The notes beneath the pieces are model-generated. The model searched no databases, was not told the DNA's origin, and saw only the letters and a list, made by a program, of their open reading frames with translations. Below, piece by piece: positions 10,233 through 20,568 of a stretch of 64,000 nucleotides of DNA. Both the position numbers and the translations under genes were made by a program. Origin of the DNA: Acidimicrobiales bacterium. GTDB taxonomy: Bacteria; Actinomycetota; Acidimicrobiia; Acidimicrobiales; Bin134. The stretch lies in contig OZ220474.1 in assembly GCA_965115985.1 (NCBI GenBank), forward strand, positions 3,172,504-3,236,503. Reading direction: 5' to 3'. Numbering within the stretch: position 1 is the first letter of the stretch; each line of letters begins with the position of its first letter.

Positions 10233-10284
10233 CCGCCGGATTATTCCCCAGTAGCCACGAGGTCATTCCCCGGTAGCCGCCGGA
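10211..10284. repeat. Duplicated 30-bp convergent stop/stop junction (period 44 bp)
   Basis: ccacgaggtcattccccggtagccgccgga occurs at 10211-10240 and 10255-10284. The NUDIX TAG (10230-10232) is in copy 1. The stop of the minus-strand gene (tca 10263-10265) is in copy 2. Confidence 0.95.
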
Positions 10285-11651
10285 GTTCTGGTGCCCCGGC
10301 GCTTGCGCTTGGGGGCGGGGGAGGGCTCCACCCCGAACAGCGACGCGATATGGGGAACCCGGTTGGCCAGTTTCTTCACCTCGGTCAGCAGTTCCTGGTC
10401 GGGTTTTTCCGGTATGCCCAGGGGCTTCACCGTCCAGCGAACCGGCGAGAACGCCACCGCTCCCAGAACGGTGATCCACCGCTTGGTCGGAGTGTCGCCG
10501 GCCAACTCGGCACTGGCCGCCTCGGTCAACCGGGTGACTATGTCCTGGGGCAGGGGCACCCCCGCTTTTGGGGGCCGGGAGCTGAGCCTCAGGGCCCGGA
10601 CCATGCGACCGTCGGCCAAAGTGGCCGCCACCTCGGCCAGCCATTCGGAATGCTCCCGATCCACCCGCTCGGTGAGCTTGGCTCGCAATTCCTCGGCCAT
10701 GGCCTTGGTCTCGTCGTCGTCGGCCCCGGTTTCGGCCGCCACCACCACCGAGCGAAGGTCGCGCAAGTCGATCTCGCCCGCTCCTGCCAATGCCGCCTCC
10801 GCCCGATCCCGCCACTCCGCGGCCCGCATCCGGGGAAGCAACTTGCGAGCCACCGCCAAGAAATCCGCGGATTTGTCGGGGGTGGGTGGTTCGTCCTTGG
10901 GTGGTTTCTTGTCGGCTTCGGTCGCGGTCTTGTCGGGGGTGGGTGGTTCGTCCTTGGGTGGTTTCTTGTCGGCTTCGGTCGCGGTCTTGTCGGGGGTGGG
11001 TGGTTCGTCCTTGGGTGGTTTCTTGGCTGCCTCGGCCGCGTCGCGGGATTTTTTGCGTTGGTCCCGAAGGGCTTGCTCCACCGAGCCGATGCCGTCCCTG
11101 ACCATCTTCTCGGCGACGGGCTTCTGGTCGTCGGGCAGGCTGTCGATCACCGCTTGACGATGGACCCGGTTGGGGCGCAGGCGTCGGGGTTGGGGACGAT
11201 CATCCTCACGCCGGGGCTTGGATCGCGAGCGATCCTTTCCGTCGCCGCCATCCCTACGGCCCCGATGATCCCGGTTGTCCCGACGGTCGTCGCGGTTGCG
11301 GCGGTCGTTGCGGTCGCGGGTGTCCCTGTCCTTGCGCCCGGACACCAACCGAGTGGTGACCAGCGCCTGCTCCCGGCCCGATCCCAGTATCTCCAACGTC
11401 TCGGGCATGGGGCGCTTCTGCTTGGCTGCGAACACCTCGATGATCTCGATGCCGTCCATGTGGAACTCGGCCTCGACGGTCACCTCGTCGCCCACCTCCA
11501 CCGGGAAGGTGAGCAGGTCGCCCGGGAGGTCGCCCTTGGGTTGGCGAGCCCCGGCGGCCCGCCATGTCCAAGAACCGTCGGAACGCCGGCTGGTCAGCTC
11601 AATCTCAATCCTTCGAGACACCGGCGGCCACGCTACCGCACCGATGCCCAA
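10263..11651 (-). CDS. Hypothetical protein with Arg/Asp-rich segment and 19-aa tandem repeats
   Basis: 462-codon ORF containing an RDRNDRRNRDDRRDNRDHRGRRD stretch and KKPPKDEPPTPDKTATEAD x 2.7. No family was recognised. Confidence 0.5.
   Translation of the reverse strand: MGIGAVAWPPVSRRIEIELTSRRSDGSWTWRAAGARQPKGDLPGDLLTFPVEVGDEVTVEAEFHMDGIEIIEVFAAKQKRPMPETLEILGSGREQALVTTRLVSGRKDRDTRDRNDRRNRDDRRDNRDHRGRRDGGDGKDRSRSKPRREDDRPQPRRLRPNRVHRQAVIDSLPDDQKPVAEKMVRDGIGSVEQALRDQRKKSRDAAEAAKKPPKDEPPTPDKTATEADKKPPKDEPPTPDKTATEADKKPPKDEPPTPDKSADFLAVARKLLPRMRAAEWRDRAEAALAGAGEIDLRDLRSVVVAAETGADDDETKAMAEELRAKLTERVDREHSEWLAEVAATLADGRMVRALRLSSRPPKAGVPLPQDIVTRLTEAASAELAGDTPTKRWITVLGAVAFSPVRWTVKPLGIPEKPDQELLTEVKKLANRVPHIASLFGVEPSPAPKRKRRGTRTPAATGE
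10872..11024. repeat. In-frame 57-bp tandem repeat x 2.7 inside CDS 10263-11651
   Basis: Near-identical DNA units encode KKPPKDEPPTPDKTATEAD. The period is divisible by 3. Confidence 0.95.
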
Positions 11652-11691: not shown

Positions 11692-12063
11692 TCAGCATCG
11701 CTCCAGCACTGCGGCGGCGGGAACGGCGAACCCCCCGAGATCGACGGCGACCGTGGCCGTGGCCGGGGTGAGCCCGATGAGCACCCTGGGGGTCCAGGCG
11801 ACCCGGGCCGTCACCCGTAGAACCGAAGAGCCGGCGTTCCGGCTCACGCATCCGGCCAGAGCGGTGCCGTCGATGCGGGTGGTGTTCACCGTGTCCGAAT
11901 CGCAGCCGCGTCCGCCACAGGTGTCGATGAACCGGGCTGCGGCCCGCTCGGCCCGGACCGCGGCCAGGTTGCGGTTGGTTATCAGTTCGCCATGGTCGGC
12001 CAGCGAGCCGGTGGTCAGCGCAATCCCTATGCCCAGGGCCAACAGGACGATGGCGGTGTACAT
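11692..12063 (-). CDS. TadE-like pilus-assembly/pseudopilin protein (actinobacterial Tad-neighbourhood type)
   Basis: Short protein with the N-terminal hydrophobic helix MYTAIVLLALGIGIAL, located at the distal end of the Tad operon. Confidence 0.5.
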   Translation of the reverse strand: MYTAIVLLALGIGIALTTGSLADHGELITNRNLAAVRAERAAARFIDTCGGRGCDSDTVNTTRIDGTALAGCVSRNAGSSVLRVTARVAWTPRVLIGLTPATATVAVDLGGFAVPAAAVLERC

Positions 12064-12067
12064 CGGC

Positions 12068-12487
12068 CTAGCCGACGGGTTCGACGGCCACGGCGACGAC
12101 CCGGTCGATCACCAGCAGCTTGCCCAGATCGACCGGGCACTCGGCCACCGCGGCCACCGAGGCTCCGGCACCGGGCCGGTGGGAAGACGGAGGTTGGGAC
12201 ACCAGGCTGATGCGGAAGCCGGCATCGGTCTGGTCGCAGACCCCGGCGGTGGCGGCCCGCCCGGACTGCTCCACGGTGGCCACCACCTCGCGCCACCGGG
12301 GCCGGGCCGACGGCTCGGCCCCGGAAGCAGTGGAGTCGGTCAGGGCATCGGCGGCGTAGGCCGCCGCGGTTTCCGCGAACGTCGAGGTCCGGTGGTTGGC
12401 CGCTCCCAACGTTCCCGCGGCGTTGAGCACCACCAAGCCCAGCACCATTACCGGCAGGATGAGCAAGAAGGCGATGGCGTCGCTCAT
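12068..12487 (-). CDS. TadE-like protein
   Basis: N-terminal AIAFLLILPVMVLGLVVL resembles a TadE-domain helix. Operon context. Confidence 0.55.
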   Translation of the reverse strand: MSDAIAFLLILPVMVLGLVVLNAAGTLGAANHRTSTFAETAAAYAADALTDSTASGAEPSARPRWREVVATVEQSGRAATAGVCDQTDAGFRISLVSQPPSSHRPGAGASVAAVAECPVDLGKLLVIDRVVAVAVEPVG

Positions 12488-12495
12488 CGGGGTCT

Positions 12496-12592
12496 CCTCT
12501 GCGTGACCCGGCTCAGCGCAACTCGGCTCAGCACGATCCGGCTCCCCTCTGCGTGACCCGGCTCAGCGCAAATCGGCTCAGCATGATCCGGG
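12496..12592. repeat. 2 x 50-bp tandem duplication at a stop/start junction inside the Tad operon
   Basis: Copies start at 12496 and 12546. The stop of CDS 12578-12979 (tca 12578-12580) is in copy 2 and is repeated at 12528-12530. The next gene starts at 12487. Confidence 0.95.
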
Positions 12593-12979
12593 GACGCTCA
12601 GGGCTACGGTGCCGGCCACCGAGTGGCAGGCGGTGGCGGTGGTGTTGAGCACGGATCCCCGAGTGTCCAGCGGGGCGGTGGTCACCGCGACGATCAGGTT
12701 GCAGGCATCGGCGTGGACCTCGACGGCCACCGGCTGCACCGCCAGATGCTCGATTCGGCTCAGGGCGGCCTGGGAGGCAGCGGCCACTGCCTCGGGCGGG
12801 GGGTCGGACCGGCACTGCCAACCGGCCGCGGAGGCGGCCTGGGCCGCAGCCGCGGCCGCCGACTGGGCCGCGGCCCCGGTGGACAGCTTGGTGACATGGC
12901 TCACGTACAAACCGGTGATCAGAGCCAGAAGGAGCATCAGCAGAACCGAGGTGCGCAACACCACCAGAGAGTCGGCCAT
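12578..12979 (-). CDS. TadE/TadG-like pseudopilin candidate
   Basis: N-terminal hydrophobic helix VLLMLLLALITGLYV. Small secreted-type protein in the Tad operon. Confidence 0.45.
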   Translation of the reverse strand: MADSLVVLRTSVLLMLLLALITGLYVSHVTKLSTGAAAQSAAAAAAQAASAAGWQCRSDPPPEAVAAASQAALSRIEHLAVQPVAVEVHADACNLIVAVTTAPLDTRGSVLNTTATACHSVAGTVALSVPGSC

Positions 12980-13252: not shown

Positions 13253-13981
13253 TCAGATCACGAAGATCACGGCAGCCATGACGGTGAGACCAGCGATGGC
13301 AGACACGAGAGTGACTGTGGTTCCTATGGCCCGGCCGAGCTGGTCGATGGCCAGGCGCTTCTCGGACTCCAGGGTCCGGATGGATCGGGACAGGGACTTG
13401 TCCAGCAGGTCCGAGGAAGCCGCCCCGGCCCGCTCGGCGGCCACCACCGAACTCAGCAATGGCTCGGTGGGTGATCCGGCGATGACCGCGGTTACCGCGG
13501 GCAGCGGGTCCCGGCCCACCTCCAGGGCTCCCCCTATGGCTCCCCGAGCCACGGTGAACGCCCGACCGGTCACCGTCAGGGCGGCGTTGACCGCGGCGGC
13601 GTTGATGGGCTGGCCCGACGCGGTGAGCAACCGCAGCTTGCGCATCCACTCGAGCATCTTGTGATCCCGCTCGCCGCGGTAGGCGGCCGCGGCCATGAAC
13701 CGGATCGCCGCCGGTGCCCCCTGCGGCAGCCAGGTCCCGGCGATCACCGCCACGGCCAGACCCCCGGCCCCACCGAACAGCCCCCAGCCCACCGAACCCC
13801 CGATGACCACGGCGGCGGCCGACAGGCCCCATCCGGCCACAAAAACCCGGTTGGGCGACCATCCCATTGCCGAGGCCTGAACCATGGCTCGACCCCCGGC
13901 CCGAGGAGCGGTCAGCAACAGCAGGGCGATGGCCACAACCCCCGACAGCCCGGCCAGCGCCATCATCGGGCGGCCTGCCAT
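13253..13981 (-). CDS. tadC: Type II secretion system F-family protein (TadC-like)
   Basis: Polytopic membrane protein immediately downstream of the TadB-like gene, with T2SS-F-like loop segments. Confidence 0.6.
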   Translation of the reverse strand: MAGRPMMALAGLSGVVAIALLLLTAPRAGGRAMVQASAMGWSPNRVFVAGWGLSAAAVVIGGSVGWGLFGGAGGLAVAVIAGTWLPQGAPAAIRFMAAAAYRGERDHKMLEWMRKLRLLTASGQPINAAAVNAALTVTGRAFTVARGAIGGALEVGRDPLPAVTAVIAGSPTEPLLSSVVAAERAGAASSDLLDKSLSRSIRTLESEKRLAIDQLGRAIGTTVTLVSAIAGLTVMAAVIFVI

Positions 13982-14244
13982 GCCGGGGCGTGTACCCGGG
14001 TGCAGAGTGCCGCGGTCAACACCGCCAATAGCATCATTGGGCGGCCTGCCATGCCGGGGCGTGTACCCGGGTGCAGAGTGCCGCGGTCAACACCGCCAAT
14101 AGCATCATTGGGCGGCCCGCCATGCCGGGGCGAGCACCCGGGTACAGAGTGCCGCGGTCAACACCGCCAATAGCATCATTGGGCGGCCCGCCATGCCGGG
14201 GCGAGCACCCGGGTACAGAGTGCCGCGGTCAACACCGCCAATAG
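13961..14244. repeat. 4 x 71-bp tandem repeat of the tadB-stop/tadC-start overlap
   Basis: Copies start at 13961, 14032, 14103 and 14174. Each unit holds both a TadC-type ATG (MAGRPMM) and the TadB-type TGA about 16 nt downstream. The real tadC start is in copy 1 (13981). The real tadB stop is in copy 4 (14176-14178). Confidence 0.97.
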
Positions 14245-15000
14245 CAGCAGGAGTTGCTGGCCGGCCGTCGAGGCCAGCCAGGCTCCCACGTCCCGGGCGG
14301 CAAAGCCGGTGATGGCCATCATGGCGACCGCCATCACCACCGTGGCCGCGATCTGGGGCATGAGAGCAGCCACGTGGCGATGGAAGTGGCGAGCGGTTTC
14401 GGCGGCCTCGGCGGCCTCGTCGGCCAGGACGCCGGCCAGGGTCACCCACTGCGAGCCCCCGTGGAAAGCCTCGGCCAGCATCGTGGTCACCATCTCGGCC
14501 AACGGGCGCTTGATGGTGGCCGCGAACCGGCTGGCCGCTTCCACCAGCCCCCCGGTCTCGCACTCCGCGGCCATCCGCCGGGCGGCGACTCCCACCCGAC
14601 CCGAAACCAGCGGCGCGGCATCGATGACCGCCTGAACCACCGTCGGAGCCACCAGAGCCTGGTTGGCCAGCGCGCCGGCGAGCTGGGCCAGCTCGTCGGT
14701 CTCCTTAAGGGCGCGACGTGAACGGGCCTGCACGGCGAACGCCCATGCACACACCCCGGCCAGCACGGCCGCCCCCATCCCCGTGGCCACCCCGACCAGA
14801 ACCAGTCCGGCAACGAACCCGGTGATCACCACCGAGGCGGCAATCACCGGGCCGAACCAGGACGATCCCCCTCGGGGCCGTGAGAGAACCGCCATTCCGC
14901 CGAGCCGGAGCACCGAGCGACCTCCTGTCGGGGTCGGCCACCCGATCACCGCGCACAGCGCGAGCCCGGCCACTGCGACCACCAGGATCCGAGCAGTCAT
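14176..15000 (-). CDS. tadB: Type II secretion system F-family protein (TadB-like)
   Basis: Membrane protein. ATG 15000 overlaps the CpaF stop (ATGA). The longer ORF in the track (to 16005) is an alternative-frame extension through cpaF. Confidence 0.6.
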   Translation of the reverse strand: MTARILVVAVAGLALCAVIGWPTPTGGRSVLRLGGMAVLSRPRGGSSWFGPVIAASVVITGFVAGLVLVGVATGMGAAVLAGVCAWAFAVQARSRRALKETDELAQLAGALANQALVAPTVVQAVIDAAPLVSGRVGVAARRMAAECETGGLVEAASRFAATIKRPLAEMVTTMLAEAFHGGSQWVTLAGVLADEAAEAAETARHFHRHVAALMPQIAATVVMAVAMMAITGFAARDVGAWLASTAGQQLLLLLAVLTAALCTRVLAPAWRAAQ

Positions 15001-16754
15001 GGTTTTCCTGCCGCGGGAACCGTGGCCCGGCCCCTTGAGCCCGTGGGGATCATCGTCTCGTTCGTTCGGGTTCCCGGCCCAGGGATACGTTCCTGTGAGC
15101 CCGTGGGGATCATCGTCTCGTTCGTTCGGGTTCCCGGCCCAGGGATACGTTCCCGTGAGCCCGTGGGGATCATCGACTGTCGGTTGGGGGGTGGTTCCCG
15201 GCCGTCGGCCGACCGGAGCTCGATGCCCACCGACCGGTACAACTGCTCGGCCTGGCCGTGGGGCCAGCCCACCGGGGCGGCCCACCGCCGACCGGGTTGG
15301 CGTGTCCACAGGCATCGGGTGGTGATGGTGTCGTGCTCGTCGTCGTAGCTGACGATCTGGGTGACGTCGGAGATCACCCGCTCCCCCTGCTCGTTGCGAC
15401 CCATCCACACCAAAAGATGAACGGCTATGGCGATCTGCTGGCGGGCGAACCGGGGATCGGCCCCCTCGCTGCACGCGTAGGACACCAGCTTGGCCAGCAC
15501 CCCCGGCCCCGGCTGGCTGTGGAGGGTGACCAGGCAGCCGTTGAGTCCACTGCTCATGGCGTCCAGCAACGCCAGGGTGCCCTCGCCCCGGGTCTCGCCG
15601 ATCACCAGCTTGGACGAGTTGGCCCGCTTGGCGTCCCGGATGTGGTCGCTCATGGTCAGCTTGCCCACCCCGTCGTTGTTGGCGTCCCGGGTGAGCCGCT
15701 CGAAGCTGTTGGGATGTATGCCGTACTGGGCCAGGCGCAGCTCGGGGGTGTCCTCGATGGTGTCGATCCTCTCCGAGCCGTCCACGGTGGCCAGCAGGGC
15801 CTGGCACAACGTGGTTTTCCCACCCCCCATGGCGGCGGCGATCACCACGTTGGCCCTGACCGGGCCGGACACCGCGCCCACCAGGATCCTCCTCAACTGC
15901 GGGCCGGCGACGTCGAGGGCCTCGAGGGAGGCCTTGCCGGCCATGTTCGACCTGAGGACCATCGTGGGGGGATGGCACATGAACGCCTCGGCGTGGAGCC
16001 GCCACCGATCACCGAGGCGGATGTCCAGGCGGCTGTCCAGCACGTCGAACCGCTGGGGGTGCCCGCCGGAAAAGCTGGCCAGTTGCCGAGCCGTCTCTAT
16101 CAGTTCGTCGTCGGAGGCGAACGGCGAGTCCCGGCGCTCCCGCTGCCCCTCGGAGCGGTGGACGATCATGCACTCGCCTCCCCTGATCTGGAACTCCTCG
16201 ACCCCGGGTTCGTCCAGCAGGTCGGACAGCCGACTCTGCGCGGCCTGCGAGGCCGACCAGAGATGGGTCTCGCGGTCGAGAGGATCGAGCCGGCGGGGGG
16301 CGACCGCCGCCCACACCAGCCGCCGTCCGAGGCGGCGAAGCCGGCGAAGGTGCCCCCGGGCCGGTTCCGGGGGCACCCACAGGGTGAAGACCCGCTCTCG
16401 GCGGGCATTGTCCAGTTCGGGTTGTTCATCGGACACCACCACCGACACGATCGGGGTGGACCGACGCGGCCCGCTGTCCAGCCGGAGCTGGGAACGCACG
16501 TCGGTGCTGTCGGCCGAGGTGATCCACAGCACCGCGGCCGCCGAGGCGATGGCCGATTCCAGACGAACCGCCGGCTCGTCGTCGTCCAGCGACAGCACCG
16601 TGGGATGACCGGCCGCCGACGCCCGGTCGATCTCCGCCGAAGAGGCGGCCAGCACCACGTCGGCCGCCGCGGCGGTCATCCCGTCCAGCACCCCATCCAG
16701 CACCCGTTGGGCGGCCTCGACTCCGAGCAGACGATCGCGAACCGCCAGCAGCAT
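14997..16754 (-). CDS. tadA: CpaF/TadA-family secretion ATPase with ~190-aa N-terminal extension and repeated C-terminal tail
   Basis: Walker A AAMGGGKTT, VIGETRGEG box, LTLHSQ-type His box region. 585 aa. Confidence 0.9.
   Translation of the reverse strand: MLLAVRDRLLGVEAAQRVLDGVLDGMTAAAADVVLAASSAEIDRASAAGHPTVLSLDDDEPAVRLESAIASAAAVLWITSADSTDVRSQLRLDSGPRRSTPIVSVVVSDEQPELDNARRERVFTLWVPPEPARGHLRRLRRLGRRLVWAAVAPRRLDPLDRETHLWSASQAAQSRLSDLLDEPGVEEFQIRGGECMIVHRSEGQRERRDSPFASDDELIETARQLASFSGGHPQRFDVLDSRLDIRLGDRWRLHAEAFMCHPPTMVLRSNMAGKASLEALDVAGPQLRRILVGAVSGPVRANVVIAAAMGGGKTTLCQALLATVDGSERIDTIEDTPELRLAQYGIHPNSFERLTRDANNDGVGKLTMSDHIRDAKRANSSKLVIGETRGEGTLALLDAMSSGLNGCLVTLHSQPGPGVLAKLVSYACSEGADPRFARQQIAIAVHLLVWMGRNEQGERVISDVTQIVSYDDEHDTITTRCLWTRQPGRRWAAPVGWPHGQAEQLYRSVGIELRSADGREPPPNRQSMIPTGSRERIPGPGTRTNETMIPTGSQERIPGPGTRTNETMIPTGSRGRATVPAAGKP
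15037..15176. repeat. In-frame 60-bp tandem repeat x 2.3 in the 3' end of tadA
   Basis: Units start at 15037, 15097 and 15157 and encode MIPTGS(R/Q)ERIPGPGTRTNET. The period is divisible by 3. Confidence 0.95.
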
Positions 16755-16871
16755 TAGTTGCCCCCCTCGACTCCGAGCAGACGATCGCGAACCACCGGCA
16801 GCATTAGTTGCCCCCCTCGACTCCGAGCAGACGATCGCGGACCGCCGGCAGCATTAGTTGCCCCCCTCGAC
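16716..16871. repeat. 3 x 50-bp tandem repeat of a TAATG stop/start junction (cpaB-like/tadA)
   Basis: Copies start at 16716, 16766 and 16816, with a partial copy at 16866. The tadA ATG (16754) is in the copy nearest tadA. The upstream gene stop (tta 16854-16856) is in the copy nearest that gene. Confidence 0.97.
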
Positions 16872-17546
16872 CGGGCATCCGATATCGCCGGGTCCACAGA
16901 GCACCAGCGGATCATCCTGGTAGACCTCGAACTCGCACAGGGGCCAACCCGCGGGGGGAGACTCCCATATCCACCACTGCTCGTCGGCCAAAACGGCGGC
17001 CAATTCCGGGTCGGCCTCCACCGTCACCCCGGAATCGCCGGCCTCGGTTCCGGCAGCCACCAGGTTGACCAGGGCGACAGCACAGCCCCCGGGGGTGGCC
17101 GCGAACACTGCCCGGGCCCCCGCGTACGGCCCGTCACCGGACCACATCTCGTGATTGGCCCCGATCCGTATCAACGTCGTGCGGCGGTTGTCCTCATCGG
17201 GTCGGGGGCGCAGCATCGCCGGCGACACCAGGGTGCCCTCGGGCACATCGGTGGTGGCCACGGTACCGTCCAGCTCCGGCTGGGTGATGAAGAGCCCGGC
17301 CAGGTCGGCGGGCACGCTCACGGTGGCGTGCCCCCCGGGGGGATACCCCTCGACCCATCGCTCGACGGTTGCCACCACCGGGACCTCGACTGGACCTTCG
17401 TCGTTGTCGGACAGGGCGAGAATGGTGACCACGGTGATGACCAGCACCGTCCCCGCGGCCATCAGCCGCCACCGGAAACTCACCGGCCAATCCGCCGGCG
17501 ACCATTGGTCCTTTTCCGGGCGGGTCACCATGTGGTCACCTGCCAT
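16854..17546 (-). CDS. CpaB/RcpC-like (SAF-domain) pilus assembly protein candidate
   Basis: N-terminal TM segment LMAAGTVLVITVVTILAL followed by a TDVPEGTLVSPAML SAF-like segment. It lies directly upstream of tadA. The start is 17546 or 17531. Confidence 0.5.
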   Translation of the reverse strand: MAGDHMVTRPEKDQWSPADWPVSFRWRLMAAGTVLVITVVTILALSDNDEGPVEVPVVATVERWVEGYPPGGHATVSVPADLAGLFITQPELDGTVATTDVPEGTLVSPAMLRPRPDEDNRRTTLIRIGANHEMWSGDGPYAGARAVFAATPGGCAVALVNLVAAGTEAGDSGVTVEADPELAAVLADEQWWIWESPPAGWPLCEFEVYQDDPLVLCGPGDIGCPVEGGN

Positions 17547-17613
17547 TGGTCCTTTTCCGGGCGGGTCACCATGTGGTCACCTGCCATTGGTCCTTTTCCG
17601 GGCGGGTCACCAT
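17502..17613. repeat. 2.7 x 41-bp tandem repeat of an ATGGTGA stop/start junction
   Basis: Copies start at 17502, 17543 and 17584. The stop of the 615-aa gene (tca 17607-17609) is in the copy nearest that gene. The cpaB-like starts are in the distal copies. Confidence 0.95.
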
Positions 17614-19454
17614 ATCGTTACCCGTTCGGTCAGATAGTCGTTGGGCTCGCGGAACCAGGACAGATCCTCGGCCAGAACCTCGGTGTGGCGATGGCCCTGT
17701 TCGGAGGTGTATTCGACTTTTAGCTGCCACTCCCAGAAGCCACGCCGAGGAATCACCCACCGACATTTCCCGTAACGTTCCCGCCAATCGGTGGACAGGG
17801 ACAGCACCCCGCCGGTGGGCACGGTCCAGGGGGGCAGTTCCTGGGGCGAGCACCAGACGGTTGCCGGATCGGCCGAGGGGAACGCCGTTCGGAACCATTG
17901 CTTGCGCTGCTGATCCATTCGATCCCATAAATCGGCGGCAGCCCGGGCGGTATCGGCCGCGGCCGTGTTCCCCGGTGATCGCAGTTCGGCCAGCTCGGAA
18001 GCTACGTAGGGGAGCAATTCCCGCAACGACACCCCCACTGCGGTCGCGGTCCACCAGCACCCGTTCACCGGGTTGTCCAGCACATCGAGCGTCGCTCCCG
18101 GTTGCAGGGCCGTCCAGTGACGGACGGGGTTGCCGGGCCCGGAGGCCGCGGTCAAGAACAGTTGCCCACCGGGAACCTCCGGGTGGTGATGGTCGGTGAA
18201 GCCGCCGGCGTAGGGAACAATCGACTCCCACCGCACCCGTTCCCGCAGCGACGTCCGGGTTTGGTCGGTCCACCCCGACGAGCAGACCTTCTCCTCGTCC
18301 TTCTCCGTCGGGGGCGGCGGCAGGTATGGACGAGGAGTGGAAGTCGGGGGCGGAGGGGGCGGCGGCAGATACGGACGAGGAGTGGAAGTGGGTGGCGGAG
18401 GGGGCGGCGGCAGATACGGACGGGGGGTGGAAGTGGGTGGCGGAGGGGGCGGCGGCAGATATGGGCGGGGAGTGGGAGGTGGTGGCGGGGGAGGGGGTGT
18501 CGGAGTTGGGCAGGTCTTGGACATGGTTGCGTGTCTGGGGTGGGGGCCGACCCAGTACAAGGTCCGACCCGCCCTGCCCACGCACGACGGCTCCGATCCT
18601 GATTCCCGCAAGCAGGTGCTGCTGTGGCCGAAGTGCTTGTGGAACCCCGCCGAACAACCAGGATCAGGTGGCGGTGTCGGCGGCGGGGGAGGGGGTGTCG
18701 GAGTTGGGCAGGTCTTGGACATGGTTGCGTGTCTGGGGTGGGGGCCGACCCAGTACAAGGTCCGACCCGCCCTGCCCACGCACGACGGCTCCGACCCCGA
18801 TTCCCGCAAGCAGGTGCTGCTGTGGCCGAAGTGCTTGTGGAACCCCGCCGAACAACCAGGATCAGGTGGTGGTGTCGGCGGCGGAGGTGGTGTGGGGGTC
18901 GGCAGGGCCCGGCAGGTTTTGGACATGGTTGCGTGTCTGGGGTGGGGGCCGACCCAGTACAAGGTCCGACCCGCCCTGCCCACGCACGACGGCTCCGACC
19001 CCGATTCCCGCAAGCAGGTATTGCTATGGCCGAAGTGCTTGTGCAATCCCGCCGAACAACCAGGATCGGGCTTTTGTTGCATGGTGTATCGCCAGAAGTA
19101 CGTCCTCGGTGTCCACCAGTGGCTCCCGGCGGGAAACTCGTACCATGCTCCGGGCGTGTTGGACGCGGGCGGGCTGTGTCCGCACCCCTCGCTGGTACTG
19201 TGAACCACGCAGGTGCTGGAGCGAGCACCCCCGGTGGGCCGTGGGCCATAAGGCGTCCCGGCATACTCGATGAACCGGTTGGTGTGGGTGTACTCGTGGA
19301 TCACTCGCACTCGAGCGGTCCAGCACCACTCACCCACGGATGCGCCGGCGCACGGGGGGAAGTTGAAATTGAACTTCATGTCCGCGGCCACCGGCGCAGC
19401 GACGAATGGCGGGGCCAGCAGGGAGATGACGACGACCGTGACGATCACCCTCAT
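17607..19454 (-). CDS. Secreted Cys/His-rich repeat protein of unknown function
   Basis: Signal peptide MRVIVTVVVISLLAPPFVAAPVAA from ATG 19454. It has three 66-68 aa modules, four 15-aa Pro-rich units and a C-terminal domain of about 230 aa. A longer ORF to 19598 runs through an intergenic repeat. Confidence 0.6.
   Translation of the reverse strand: MRVIVTVVVISLLAPPFVAAPVAADMKFNFNFPPCAGASVGEWCWTARVRVIHEYTHTNRFIEYAGTPYGPRPTGGARSSTCVVHSTSEGCGHSPPASNTPGAWYEFPAGSHWWTPRTYFWRYTMQQKPDPGCSAGLHKHFGHSNTCLRESGSEPSCVGRAGRTLYWVGPHPRHATMSKTCRALPTPTPPPPPTPPPDPGCSAGFHKHFGHSSTCLRESGSEPSCVGRAGRTLYWVGPHPRHATMSKTCPTPTPPPPPPTPPPDPGCSAGFHKHFGHSSTCLRESGSEPSCVGRAGRTLYWVGPHPRHATMSKTCPTPTPPPPPPPPTPRPYLPPPPPPPTSTPRPYLPPPPPPPTSTPRPYLPPPPPPPTSTPRPYLPPPPTEKDEEKVCSSGWTDQTRTSLRERVRWESIVPYAGGFTDHHHPEVPGGQLFLTAASGPGNPVRHWTALQPGATLDVLDNPVNGCWWTATAVGVSLRELLPYVASELAELRSPGNTAAADTARAAADLWDRMDQQRKQWFRTAFPSADPATVWCSPQELPPWTVPTGGVLSLSTDWRERYGKCRWVIPRRGFWEWQLKVEYTSEQGHRHTEVLAEDLSWFREPNDYLTERVTIW
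18309..18473. repeat. In-frame 45-bp repeat x 3.7 (TPRPYLPPPPPPPTS)
   Basis: Coordinates were derived from protein residues 376-430 of ORF 17607-19598. Confidence 0.9.
18474..19067. repeat. In-frame 198/204-bp repeat x 3 (Cys4/His-rich module)
   Basis: The module DPGCSAG(F/L)HKHFGHS(S/N)TCLRESGSEPSCVGRAGRTLYWVGPHPRHATMSKTC plus a Pro/Thr linker is repeated, nearly identical at DNA level. Confidence 0.95.
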
Positions 19455-19466
19455 GACCCGCCTGCC

Positions 19467-19564
19467 TTGGGCATCGCCACCATCGGGGTTGACGCGAGTC
19501 CGAGTCGACCAGGGCGGCGATTCGGCCGTCCTTTGGGCATCGCCACCATCGGGGTTGACGCGAG
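19467..19564. repeat. Duplicated 31-bp segment (period 66 bp) between the lipoprotein gene and the repeat-protein gene
   Basis: ttgggcatcgccaccatcggggttgacgcgag occurs at 19467-19498 and 19533-19564. Confidence 0.9.
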
Positions 19565-19584: not shown

Positions 19585-20568
19585 TCAACACGTCCCATTG
19601 GTGTTCACCCCCACGTGCTGTTGCAATCCGGGCACTGCTCCCGGAGCCTCGGCATTGAGAACCGCGTTCAGGACCCAGTGCTCGGCGCACAACCGGGTCG
19701 TTCCCGGAACCGCCAGATGGGCGGCCAGATCGGCCTCGAACAGCGGACAGGTATCGGTGGCGATGGTCTCCGACGGGGAGTGCCCCTTGAGTTCCAAGCC
19801 CCGGAGCACGACGTCGCGGCACTTCTCGGCGAAGGAACGCCCATCGAGGGGGGTCGGATTCCCGATGGTGGGACACTGGGTCCAGGAGTTGCCCTCCCCA
19901 TCGACCACGTCGTAATCGTCGGAGTACGCCCGCTGTACGCACCCGCGATCGGCACCGTAACGCTGCACAGCGTGCTCCATCAGACCGGCGCTGGTCGTGC
20001 AGCCCAGCACGGCCTGTGACGCCCGTACCTCCTGTGGCCACGACGAGGACAGCGACGGGTCGGCGTGGTGATTGACGCACCGGCTCATCCAGTCCTCGGC
20101 CTCCGGGGGCGGCGGGATCACCCGGAACCCGCCCAGTTCTTCGGCGGTGGCGGGTCGCAGTACCCGGTACTCACCGGGAGAGGTCTCGGTCCACGCGCTT
20201 TCCAGCGACTCGGGGGGCGAGTGGTATTCCCCGCCGGAGCTCCCGCCCTCATCGGTGGCACCGGGAGCGACGTCCTTCCAGTCGGGATCCGACTCCGGCG
20301 GACCGGAGGCGGGGGAGTGGTCGTGGGAGTGGTGGTCGGCCGAGCTCGAAGCGTTGTCGATGCCGGTGTGAGCGTCCGCTCCCGCCCCGTCCAGCAATTC
20401 CTGGTCGGGCGACATCAGCAACACCGCCGCCGTCTCCTGATCCCCGACCGATGAGCTCCCGGACGAGTCTGCACCGGGCCCGCCGCAGCCCGCCAGCACC
20501 AGCACAACCATCACCCAGGCTCGGCAGATGGCACCCATACGTCCGCTCCGTTCGAGATGTTTCGACAA
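19585..20568 (-). CDS. Lipoprotein, Cys-rich, unknown function
   Basis: Lipobox VLVLAGC after a basic N-terminus. It has a His-rich stretch ADHHSHDHS and 12 further Cys residues. An alternative start is Met11 (20538). Confidence 0.6.
   Translation of the reverse strand: MSKHLERSGRMGAICRAWVMVVLVLAGCGGPGADSSGSSSVGDQETAAVLLMSPDQELLDGAGADAHTGIDNASSSADHHSHDHSPASGPPESDPDWKDVAPGATDEGGSSGGEYHSPPESLESAWTETSPGEYRVLRPATAEELGGFRVIPPPPEAEDWMSRCVNHHADPSLSSSWPQEVRASQAVLGCTTSAGLMEHAVQRYGADRGCVQRAYSDDYDVVDGEGNSWTQCPTIGNPTPLDGRSFAEKCRDVVLRGLELKGHSPSETIATDTCPLFEADLAAHLAVPGTTRLCAEHWVLNAVLNAEAPGAVPGLQQHVGVNTNGTC

Follow-up and report, generated by a model that had tools for sequence, protein, structure and literature searches.

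Introduction

Tad pili are major colonisation organelles whose accessory parts in monoderm bacteria are poorly known, and the sponge-associated Acidimicrobiia are uncultured. In described Tad systems, variable 'Tip' complexes are formed by KilL/M/N of Myxococcus and by TadE/F/G elsewhere (Herrou et al. 2025, PMC12075869). Here we describe gene X, which occupies positions 17607-19454 on the minus strand (the strand being our addition) of a 64,000-nucleotide stretch of DNA from an Acidimicrobiales bacterium (assembly GCA_965115985.1, contig OZ220474.1, positions 3,172,504 to 3,236,503; the whole stretch is called the window) and encodes a 615-aa product, as a preliminary description of the same sequence had stated. 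We propose, with a probability of roughly 0.5, that X is an exported, non-pilin, wall-spanning accessory protein of an Acidimicrobiia-specific Tad-like pilus operon and that it carries an exchangeable outer head.

Minor pilins serve as the Tip proteins, each with an alpha1N helix at its N-terminus, a site for prepilin cleavage and a variable domain at its C-terminus (PMC12075869). X resembles their complexes in its Tad-type locus, in being disulfide-rich, in combining a constant part with an interchangeable variable domain thought to contact the target, and in the occurrence of several alternative versions within a lineage. It differs from them in its putative Sec-type signal, in the lack of a detectable pilin fold and in its polarity, the conserved domain being C-terminal and the variable head N-terminal. 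Inspection of X revealed no alpha1N helix and no prepilin site; a 12-residue h-region is followed by PP and AxA.

PilY1 and PilC of type IVa pili are also large non-pilin proteins encoded among pilus genes, with a machinery-tied C-terminal domain and a variable N-terminal binding domain; PilY1 binds metal (Ca2+), and its C-terminal domain is a beta-propeller. In contrast, the model of the X C-domain is mixed alpha/beta and matches no PDB fold, X has no sequence similarity to these proteins, and they belong to another class of pilus. The third comparison is with Gram-positive wall proteins of the LPXTG, GW and WxL kinds, which share with X a signal, a head or repeats, a Pro-rich spacer and a C-terminal anchoring part, and whose repeat copy number varies between strains. 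However, X ends in ...DYLTERVTIW, with neither an LPXTG motif nor a hydrophobic tail, and has no GW, WxL, SLH or LysM match in Pfam; any anchoring of X would presumably be by its C-domain.

Results

Anatomy of X

From its N- to its C-terminus, X comprises a putative signal peptide, an N-domain of ~104 aa, three Cys/His modules, a Pro-rich stalk and a Trp-rich C-domain (coordinates in Table 1). This anatomy agrees with the preliminary description, which had listed a signal peptide, an N-terminal domain of ~100 aa, four repeat units after the modules and a Trp-rich C-terminal domain of about 230 aa. The N-terminus (MRVIVTVVVISLLAPPFVAAPVAA, with the mature protein beginning at D) was judged by eye to be a Sec-type signal: a short n-region with basic residues leads into a hydrophobic core of 12 residues, the c-region contains Pro, and an AxA site is present. 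Orthologues have equivalent hydrophobic segments ending in AxA, which are not conserved between orthologue types.

A longer open reading frame (ORF) from an upstream ATG at 19598 (663 aa) was rejected; orthologues begin at the MRV... position, and the 48 additional residues correspond to the duplicated 30-bp junction unit described below, which argues against use of that ATG.

The C-domain family and its linkage to Tad loci

X belongs to no Pfam or NCBIfam family, the lone match being a spurious, sub-threshold one to Spp-24 in Pfam. Its neighbours, its paralogues and remote X-like proteins were also run against Pfam and NCBIfam and yielded nothing for X, and PDB sequence searches with a C-domain profile, a module profile and full-length X returned only weak, irrelevant matches. 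The AlphaFold2 (AF2) model of the C-domain, made with 26 sequences (pLDDT 76, pTM 0.75), had no Foldseek match in the PDB or BFVD at E <= 0.001, the best TM-score being ~0.27. The earlier remark that no family could be recognised was thus upheld by the sequence and fold searches.

Twenty-five unnamed relatives, 415-500 aa long, came from a database search; they align with X over the last ~230 residues alone (54-68% identity). The alignment of 18 sequences contains the invariant residues C7, W11, R24-E26-S27, C82-W84, W150-C151, C180-R181, G188-W190-W192 and S215-W216-F217. We defined the family by a C-terminal domain of ~228 aa carrying these residues; X fits this definition, and in this alignment it is 54-71% identical to orthologues and 38-41% to paralogues, in which the His of the HHHPEVPGG motif are not retained; the ten or so paralogous loci described below have C-domains of roughly 37% identity. 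The four invariant Cys fit an exported protein.

The C-domain is present in 35 of the 36 species-level genomes of Candidatus Poriferisocius, a genus whose records are sponge-associated metagenome-assembled genomes (MAGs) and which NCBI places in Candidatus Hopanoidivoransaceae, and in none of the 24 other families of the order. A class-wide profile search added G417 alone.

Within this distribution, linkage to the pilus genes was found throughout the orthologous loci. All 16 that were compared have the order X, SAF, ATPase, TadB, TadC, pilin, three TadE and then a 462-aa gene. Of the loci taken from named records, all 32 have SAF adjoining X; the SAF match begins before the X stop in 31, the alignment in the other locus (L067) being partial, and a long ATPase match is present in 31, the contig of the 32nd (L039) ending early. 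In a survey of the class (401 genomes), three genera alone had the extended ATPase that this operon subtype encodes. In G417 the X-like gene (tblastn E 1.8e-10 to the C-domain) is followed at once by SAF and then ATPase; G388 encodes a 429-aa X-like protein of the same architecture (hhalign 61%, E 8e-5) before SAF and ATPase, and a lipoprotein gene (528 aa) lies before this X-like gene, the two being joined by a start/stop overlap. The association of X with Tad loci that the preliminary description had proposed therefore holds in both sets of loci and in two further genera.

Some peculiarities of these two genera were also observed. In G417 (L034, 9715-10235) the C-domain match is split over two reading frames, which points to a frameshift or a sequencing error. 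The SAF gene of G388 has an internal tandem duplication, and a ComEC gene lies directly upstream of its lipoprotein-X-SAF-ATPase unit (L082, 13561-15810 and 9669-10529). A reading in terms of DNA uptake was not adopted, as ComEC adjoins the operon in G388 and not in Ca. Poriferisocius or in this genome.

Exchange of the head and its partner lipoprotein

The region before the C-domain differs sharply between species, and its N-domains are of types A, B and C. Type A reads WTHVNSWTHY...NCGHGPH, in a mature protein predicted to begin at His, type C reads TCTDPNTG..., and X of this genome is of type B. All head types continue into Pro/Thr repeats of varied kinds, and some heads also contain a four-Cys knot (NPCANGGCLPPC). 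The stalk units of X are TPRPYLPPPP x4; the closest relative (L038) has related PRPYQPPPP units, and other orthologues have Pro/Thr repeats of different kinds at this position.

The preliminary description had X heading the Tad operon. This did not hold, as a lipoprotein gene on the same strand lies 130 bp upstream, X is the second gene of the unit, and the pairing is kept in relatives, the lipoprotein being directly upstream of X in all eight other species with a type B N-domain. Type B is found with a 327-aa-type lipoprotein in 9/9 loci (this genome counted) and type A with a 351-type lipoprotein in 15/16, so that 24 of the 25 typed loci conform to the pairing; at the profile level, the two kinds of lipoprotein are homologous (hhalign 96%, E 1.4e-9).

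On the ATPase tree the head types are scattered. Well-supported branches force a minimum of three changes for type B, and this genome and its sister, both of type B, group with a type-A genome (support 100/99), apart from the main type-B clade. This scatter indicates that, in the course of the evolution of the genus, the head and the upstream lipoprotein were exchanged together, as a cassette, on several occasions.

In type-A orthologues (P0002-P0005, L046-L058) and in L082:10508-11797, the predicted AxA cleavage would leave His first (ALA/HEQT, VA/HTRT). A first mature His is the hallmark position of histidine-brace copper sites. X differs from histidine-brace copper proteins (LPMO, CopC, PmoD-like) in its predicted mature start at Asp26. 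The C-domain model matches the copper proteins 9d0z, 6cpd and 9ll2 with insignificant probabilities of 0.05-0.15, and the type-A head lies outside that model.

A recently triplicated Cys4/His5 module

The first module begins at aa 130, the second 68 aa later at aa 198 and the third after a further 66 aa at aa 264 (Tandem Repeats Finder, TRF: 198 bp x 2.9 copies, 94% match). Each is ~52 aa long, with the motif C-x4-H-K-H-x-G-H-x3-C-x9-C-x23-C. They had previously been described as three near-identical Cys4/His6 modules of 66-68 aa; the three modules and their four Cys were recovered, and the number of His is five (HKH, GH, HPRH), not six.

The closest relative (L038, NZ_OZ241836.1), whose C-domain is 86% identical, has exactly one module, 87% identical, in which the four Cys and five His are kept. 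The module is absent from all of the first 16 orthologues, and a word-based search of a 5.8-billion-protein set found no match. When the three-module region was run exhaustively with phmmer on 1.84 billion representative proteins, four matches emerged, all to unrelated repeat proteins (two with Gly/Asp-rich tandem repeats, a junk repeat and a helical-repeat protein). The AF2 model of one module (pLDDT 75.5) has four short strands and no Foldseek match in the PDB at E <= 0.001.

Between this genome and L038, the module has 27 synonymous and 10.5 non-synonymous differences, with a ratio of non-synonymous to synonymous divergence (dN/dS) of 0.04-0.05; it is a constrained protein domain under strong purifying selection, and the repeat is not a product of chance. 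The three copies differ at specific positions and in their linkers. Their dS values are 0.12 between copies 1 and 2 and 0.06 between copies 2 and 3, against ~0.55 for the flanking domains between species, which indicates that the triplication was recent and took place in two steps after the split from the L038 lineage. The dS of the module itself between the sister species is ~2 in a small sample (18864-19067 vs L038:9413-9598), far above that of the flanking N- and C-domains, and could reflect a separate history of the module.

Tandem arrays, counted over the whole genome at a period of at least 20 bp and a match of at least 90%, number 717 (~213 per Mb), and the module array is among the 21 with a period of at least 100 bp.

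An origin of the module by internal duplication of the N-domain, the C-domain or orthologue heads was rejected (shuffle tests, p 0.25-0.95). Cys4 modules with a GEHKHG motif occur in one to five tandem copies in paralogues and in one Tad-linked orthologue (L021/L045) and are mutually related (z 9.9). Like the X module, they have the pattern G-x-H-x-H-x(2-6)-C-x7-P-x-C with equal C2-C3 spacing and are arrayed in tandem in the stretch that separates N-domain from stalk; unlike it, they have their first and last Cys offset. Statistics for the comparison were marginal (z 1.8-2.7, HMM domain E 0.007-0.02, hhalign E 0.06). An HMM from the paralogue modules alone did not detect the X modules, and addition of the L021 module gave consistent but marginal matches. 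The shared pattern is unique to X in the six-frame translation of the genome (6.7 million residues) and never occurred in shuffles; because it was derived after the alignment had been seen, this uniqueness is supportive, not decisive. Together these comparisons make a common origin of the X module and the GEHKHG modules fairly probable.

Discussion

A proposed accessory protein with an exchangeable head

Our proposal that X is an accessory protein of the Tad-like pilus divides it into two halves, and we infer its export, topology, docking, ligand or metal binding and pilus role from sequence and context. The sequences establish its anatomy, conservation, synteny, cassette swapping, recent triplication and purifying selection. 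The C-domain would be the constant half, facing the machine or the envelope and docking on the SAF/CpaB-like protein, the partner lipoprotein or the cell wall; its constancy and its unbroken coupling to the SAF gene suggest that it works with one or the other, a function read from genomic context. Everything N-terminal to it would be the variable, environment-facing head, which, being swapped and Cys/His-rich, is likely to be outward-facing and to bear specificity. The Pro-rich stalk, probably long enough to cross a monoderm wall, would hold the head off the cell, and the architecture is consistent with a wall-spanning role, one of those that the preliminary description had considered. In the lineage of this genome and its sister, the head carries the small disulfide-type module of ~52 aa, taken here from one copy to three by two recent tandem duplications through the same slippage or unequal recombination that may lie behind the genome-wide repeats. 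This amplification lengthens the head and triples a His-rich site that possibly binds metal or another ligand; the conserved His and Cys suggest metal binding by the module.

A bolder version of this proposal, which we offer tentatively and consider doubtful, is that X and the lipoprotein form an unrecognised non-pilin 'exchangeable head' of a monoderm Tad-like system in sponge symbionts. The C-domain would connect to the pilus machinery, while cassette swapping and amplification of the His/Cys module would retune binding to metal ions or to sponge matrix, with tandem duplication in this genome as the tuning mechanism.

Several points weigh against the accessory-protein proposal. About ten paralogous lipoprotein-X cassettes have no Tad genes within 10 kb. 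Their order is lipoprotein, X-like gene (up to 857 aa, five GEHKHG modules), sometimes a staphylococcal-type nuclease (SNase-family lipoprotein), and a conserved 321-331-aa gene belonging to no family (loci L030-L033 and L071-L081). Copies lying away from Tad genes indicate that the X family is not strictly a pilus part and is apparently able to work without the pilus machine. The C-domain, having no fold match (PDB, BFVD) and no sequence match, offers no mechanistic tie to pili. The outward end of X is assigned solely by analogy with Gram-positive surface proteins, and its signal peptide was called by inspection. The pairing of N-domain type with lipoprotein may be a single recombination tract rather than a functional requirement, as the N-domain and the lipoprotein gene are adjacent and linkage alone might account for it.

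Alternative explanations

The paralogous cassettes lead to the alternative that the lipoprotein and X are an autonomous extracytoplasmic unit, for metal capture or buffering (Cu, Zn or Ni) or for redox, which merely shares the Tad transcript in one genomic copy. Ten loci have such cassettes without Tad genes, the partner lipoproteins form one family, and the heads are rich in His and Cys: five His are conserved per X module, paralogues with up to five GEHKHG modules have 36-43 His, the upstream lipoprotein has an HHSHDH stretch, and type-A heads begin with His after the predicted AxA site. However, in every species, as in two further genera, an overlap joins the Tad-linked copy to the SAF gene, which points to stoichiometric co-production, and this Tad-linked copy is the only one in this genome, where no paralogue was found. 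The copper-protein fold matches are insignificant, no metal-transport genes lie nearby, and we consider an autonomous unit rather unlikely.

X could also be a pilus tip adhesin, as the preliminary description had suggested, its C-domain seated at the end of the fibre on the three TadE-like minor pilins and its modules contacting sponge matrix. Variable tips that are exchangeable and rich in disulfides are known from Tad pili (PMC12075869), and the swapped head of X, the three TadE-like genes of the operon and the host-associated lifestyle suggested by the sponge MAGs would all agree with this. Set against it, the minor pilins that build the known tips possess an alpha1N helix at the N-terminus and a prepilin site (PMC12075869), whereas the hydrophobic segment of X is short and non-conserved, Pro and AxA come after it, and the conserved part of the protein is C-terminal. 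Moreover, such a Pro-rich stalk, ~60 to >100 aa long, is characteristic of proteins that span the wall rather than of tips, and paralogues occur without pili. A tip adhesin thus appears unlikely.

A further candidate function is that of an envelope assembly factor, acting in wall remodelling or wall binding, or as a conduit for the fibre, and standing in for the secretin or pilotin absent in monoderms. In diderm Tad loci, rcpA/cpaC-type genes sit directly before the CpaB-like gene, which is the place of X here. The C-domain is rich in Trp (15/231), as are many glycan-binding domains, and one relative has a faint SLT_3 gene two genes upstream. No hydrolase or carbohydrate-binding module (CBM) fold or family was detected in Pfam or by fold search, however, a variable, swapped head would be unexpected in a housekeeping conduit, and the His of the HHHPEVPGG motif is lost in paralogues; we hold this function to be improbable.

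An explanation of the triple repeat by misassembly, or by decay of the gene, is largely refuted and highly improbable, since, although the single-contig MAG (completeness 90.8%) is rich in tandem repeats, the copies are distinguishable at defined sites and in linkers, the frame is open with dN/dS 0.04-0.15, and the sister species L038 retains the module.

Significance

What is new here is a protein family absent from the curated databases searched and tied to one Tad-like operon subtype in three genera. As an accessory protein with an exchangeable head, X would be a concrete candidate for how sponge symbionts vary surface or pilus specificity, and its ~52-aa module is small enough to be expressed and tested for metal or ligand binding. 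The pervasive tandem duplication of this genome reshapes a protein as well as gene junctions.

The surrounding operon

Table 1. Features of gene X and of the Tad-like operon, in window coordinates.
Feature	Position	Strand	Remarks
Upstream lipoprotein gene, 327 aa, lipobox LAGC, His-rich stretch (HHSHDH)	19585..20568	-	First gene of unit
Two copies of 30-bp unit (CGCGTCAACCCCGATGGTGGCGATGCCCAA) between lipoprotein stop and X start	19468..19562	-	Sequence read
Gene X, predicted exported modular protein, 615 aa	17607..19454	-	Start at 19454 backed by orthologue starts
Putative signal peptide, aa 1-25, MRVIVTVVVISLLAPPFVAAPVAA followed by D	19380..19454	-	By inspection
N-domain type B, aa 26-129, 4 Cys	19068..19379	-	56-64% identity to N-domains of 7/16 orthologous loci
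Cys4/His5 module copy 1 + Pro/Thr linker, aa 130-197	18864..19067	-	87% identical to single L038 module
Cys4/His5 module copy 2 + linker, aa 198-263	18666..18863	-	
Cys4/His5 module copy 3 + linker, aa 264-327	18474..18665	-	Core vs copy 2: two synonymous bases
Pro-rich stalk, four TPRPYLPPPPPPPTS units, aa 328-384	18303..18473	-	TRF 45 bp x 4.0 copies
Trp-rich C-domain, aa 385-615, 231 aa, 15 Trp, 4 invariant Cys	17610..18302	-	Family-defining domain; alignments
41-bp x 2.7 tandem copies of X-stop/SAF-start junction	17502..17613	-	Chain of ATGGTGA-coupled 15-codon ORFs
SAF-domain (CpaB/RcpC-like) gene, 230 aa	16854..17546	-	Pfam SAF E 2.6e-4, 21.9 bits vs cut-off 21; always directly after X
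Tad-type secretion ATPase, N-terminal extension, 585 aa	14997..16754	-	Pfam T2SSE E 3.6e-14, above cut-off
TadB-like gene	14176-15000	-	No T2SSF match; order + size
TadC-like gene	13253-13981	-	Weak T2SSF match, E 0.0058, below cut-off
Pilin-like gene, 74 aa	12989-13213	-	Order kept in 16/16 loci
Three TadE-like genes	12578-12979, 12068-12487, 11692-12063	-	Order kept in 16/16 loci

The TGA stop of X (17607-17609) lies inside the heptamer ATGGTGA, and the same heptamer opens the first of the 2.7 41-bp copies of the cpaB-like start, as the preliminary description had noted in speaking of a stop overlapping a duplicated start. Each additional copy is a 15-codon ORF whose stop overlaps the next ATG, and start/stop coupling is preserved through the repeat. 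No terminator-like sites were found on the minus strand between the lipoprotein, X and pilus genes. The chain of coupled ORFs and the lack of terminator-like sites make co-transcription of X with the pilus genes likely, as the preliminary description had supposed. The two CGCGTCAACCCCGATGGTGGCGATGCCCAA copies widen the junction between the lipoprotein gene and X, which is only a few bases long in orthologues.

The best NCBIfam match of the ATPase is TIGR03819 (TadA-family; E 1.4e-40, below the equivalog cut-off). The Pfam scores behind the TadC and SAF assignments are weak, and TadB has no Pfam match; the order and sizes of these genes fit a Tad locus and are conserved. The locus contains no prepilin peptidase gene; a single Peptidase_A24 gene (42.1 bits, above cut-off) lies ~133 kb away at C1:3369052-3369405.

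Downstream of the TadE-like genes, the 462-aa gene (10263-11651, minus strand) has near-full-length matches in 14/16 relatives and may belong to the operon; it has three KKPPKDEPPTPDKTATEAD repeats and no Pfam match. Near-perfect repeats are found on every gene junction of the Tad-like operon (14003-14246, 15032-15175, 16715-16871 and 17502-17613). At the 3' end of the ATPase gene (15032-15175, minus strand), a 60-bp x 2.4 repeat adds three MIPTGS(R/Q)ERIPGPGTRTNET copies to the C-terminus, and the alignments of orthologue ATPases end before this tail.

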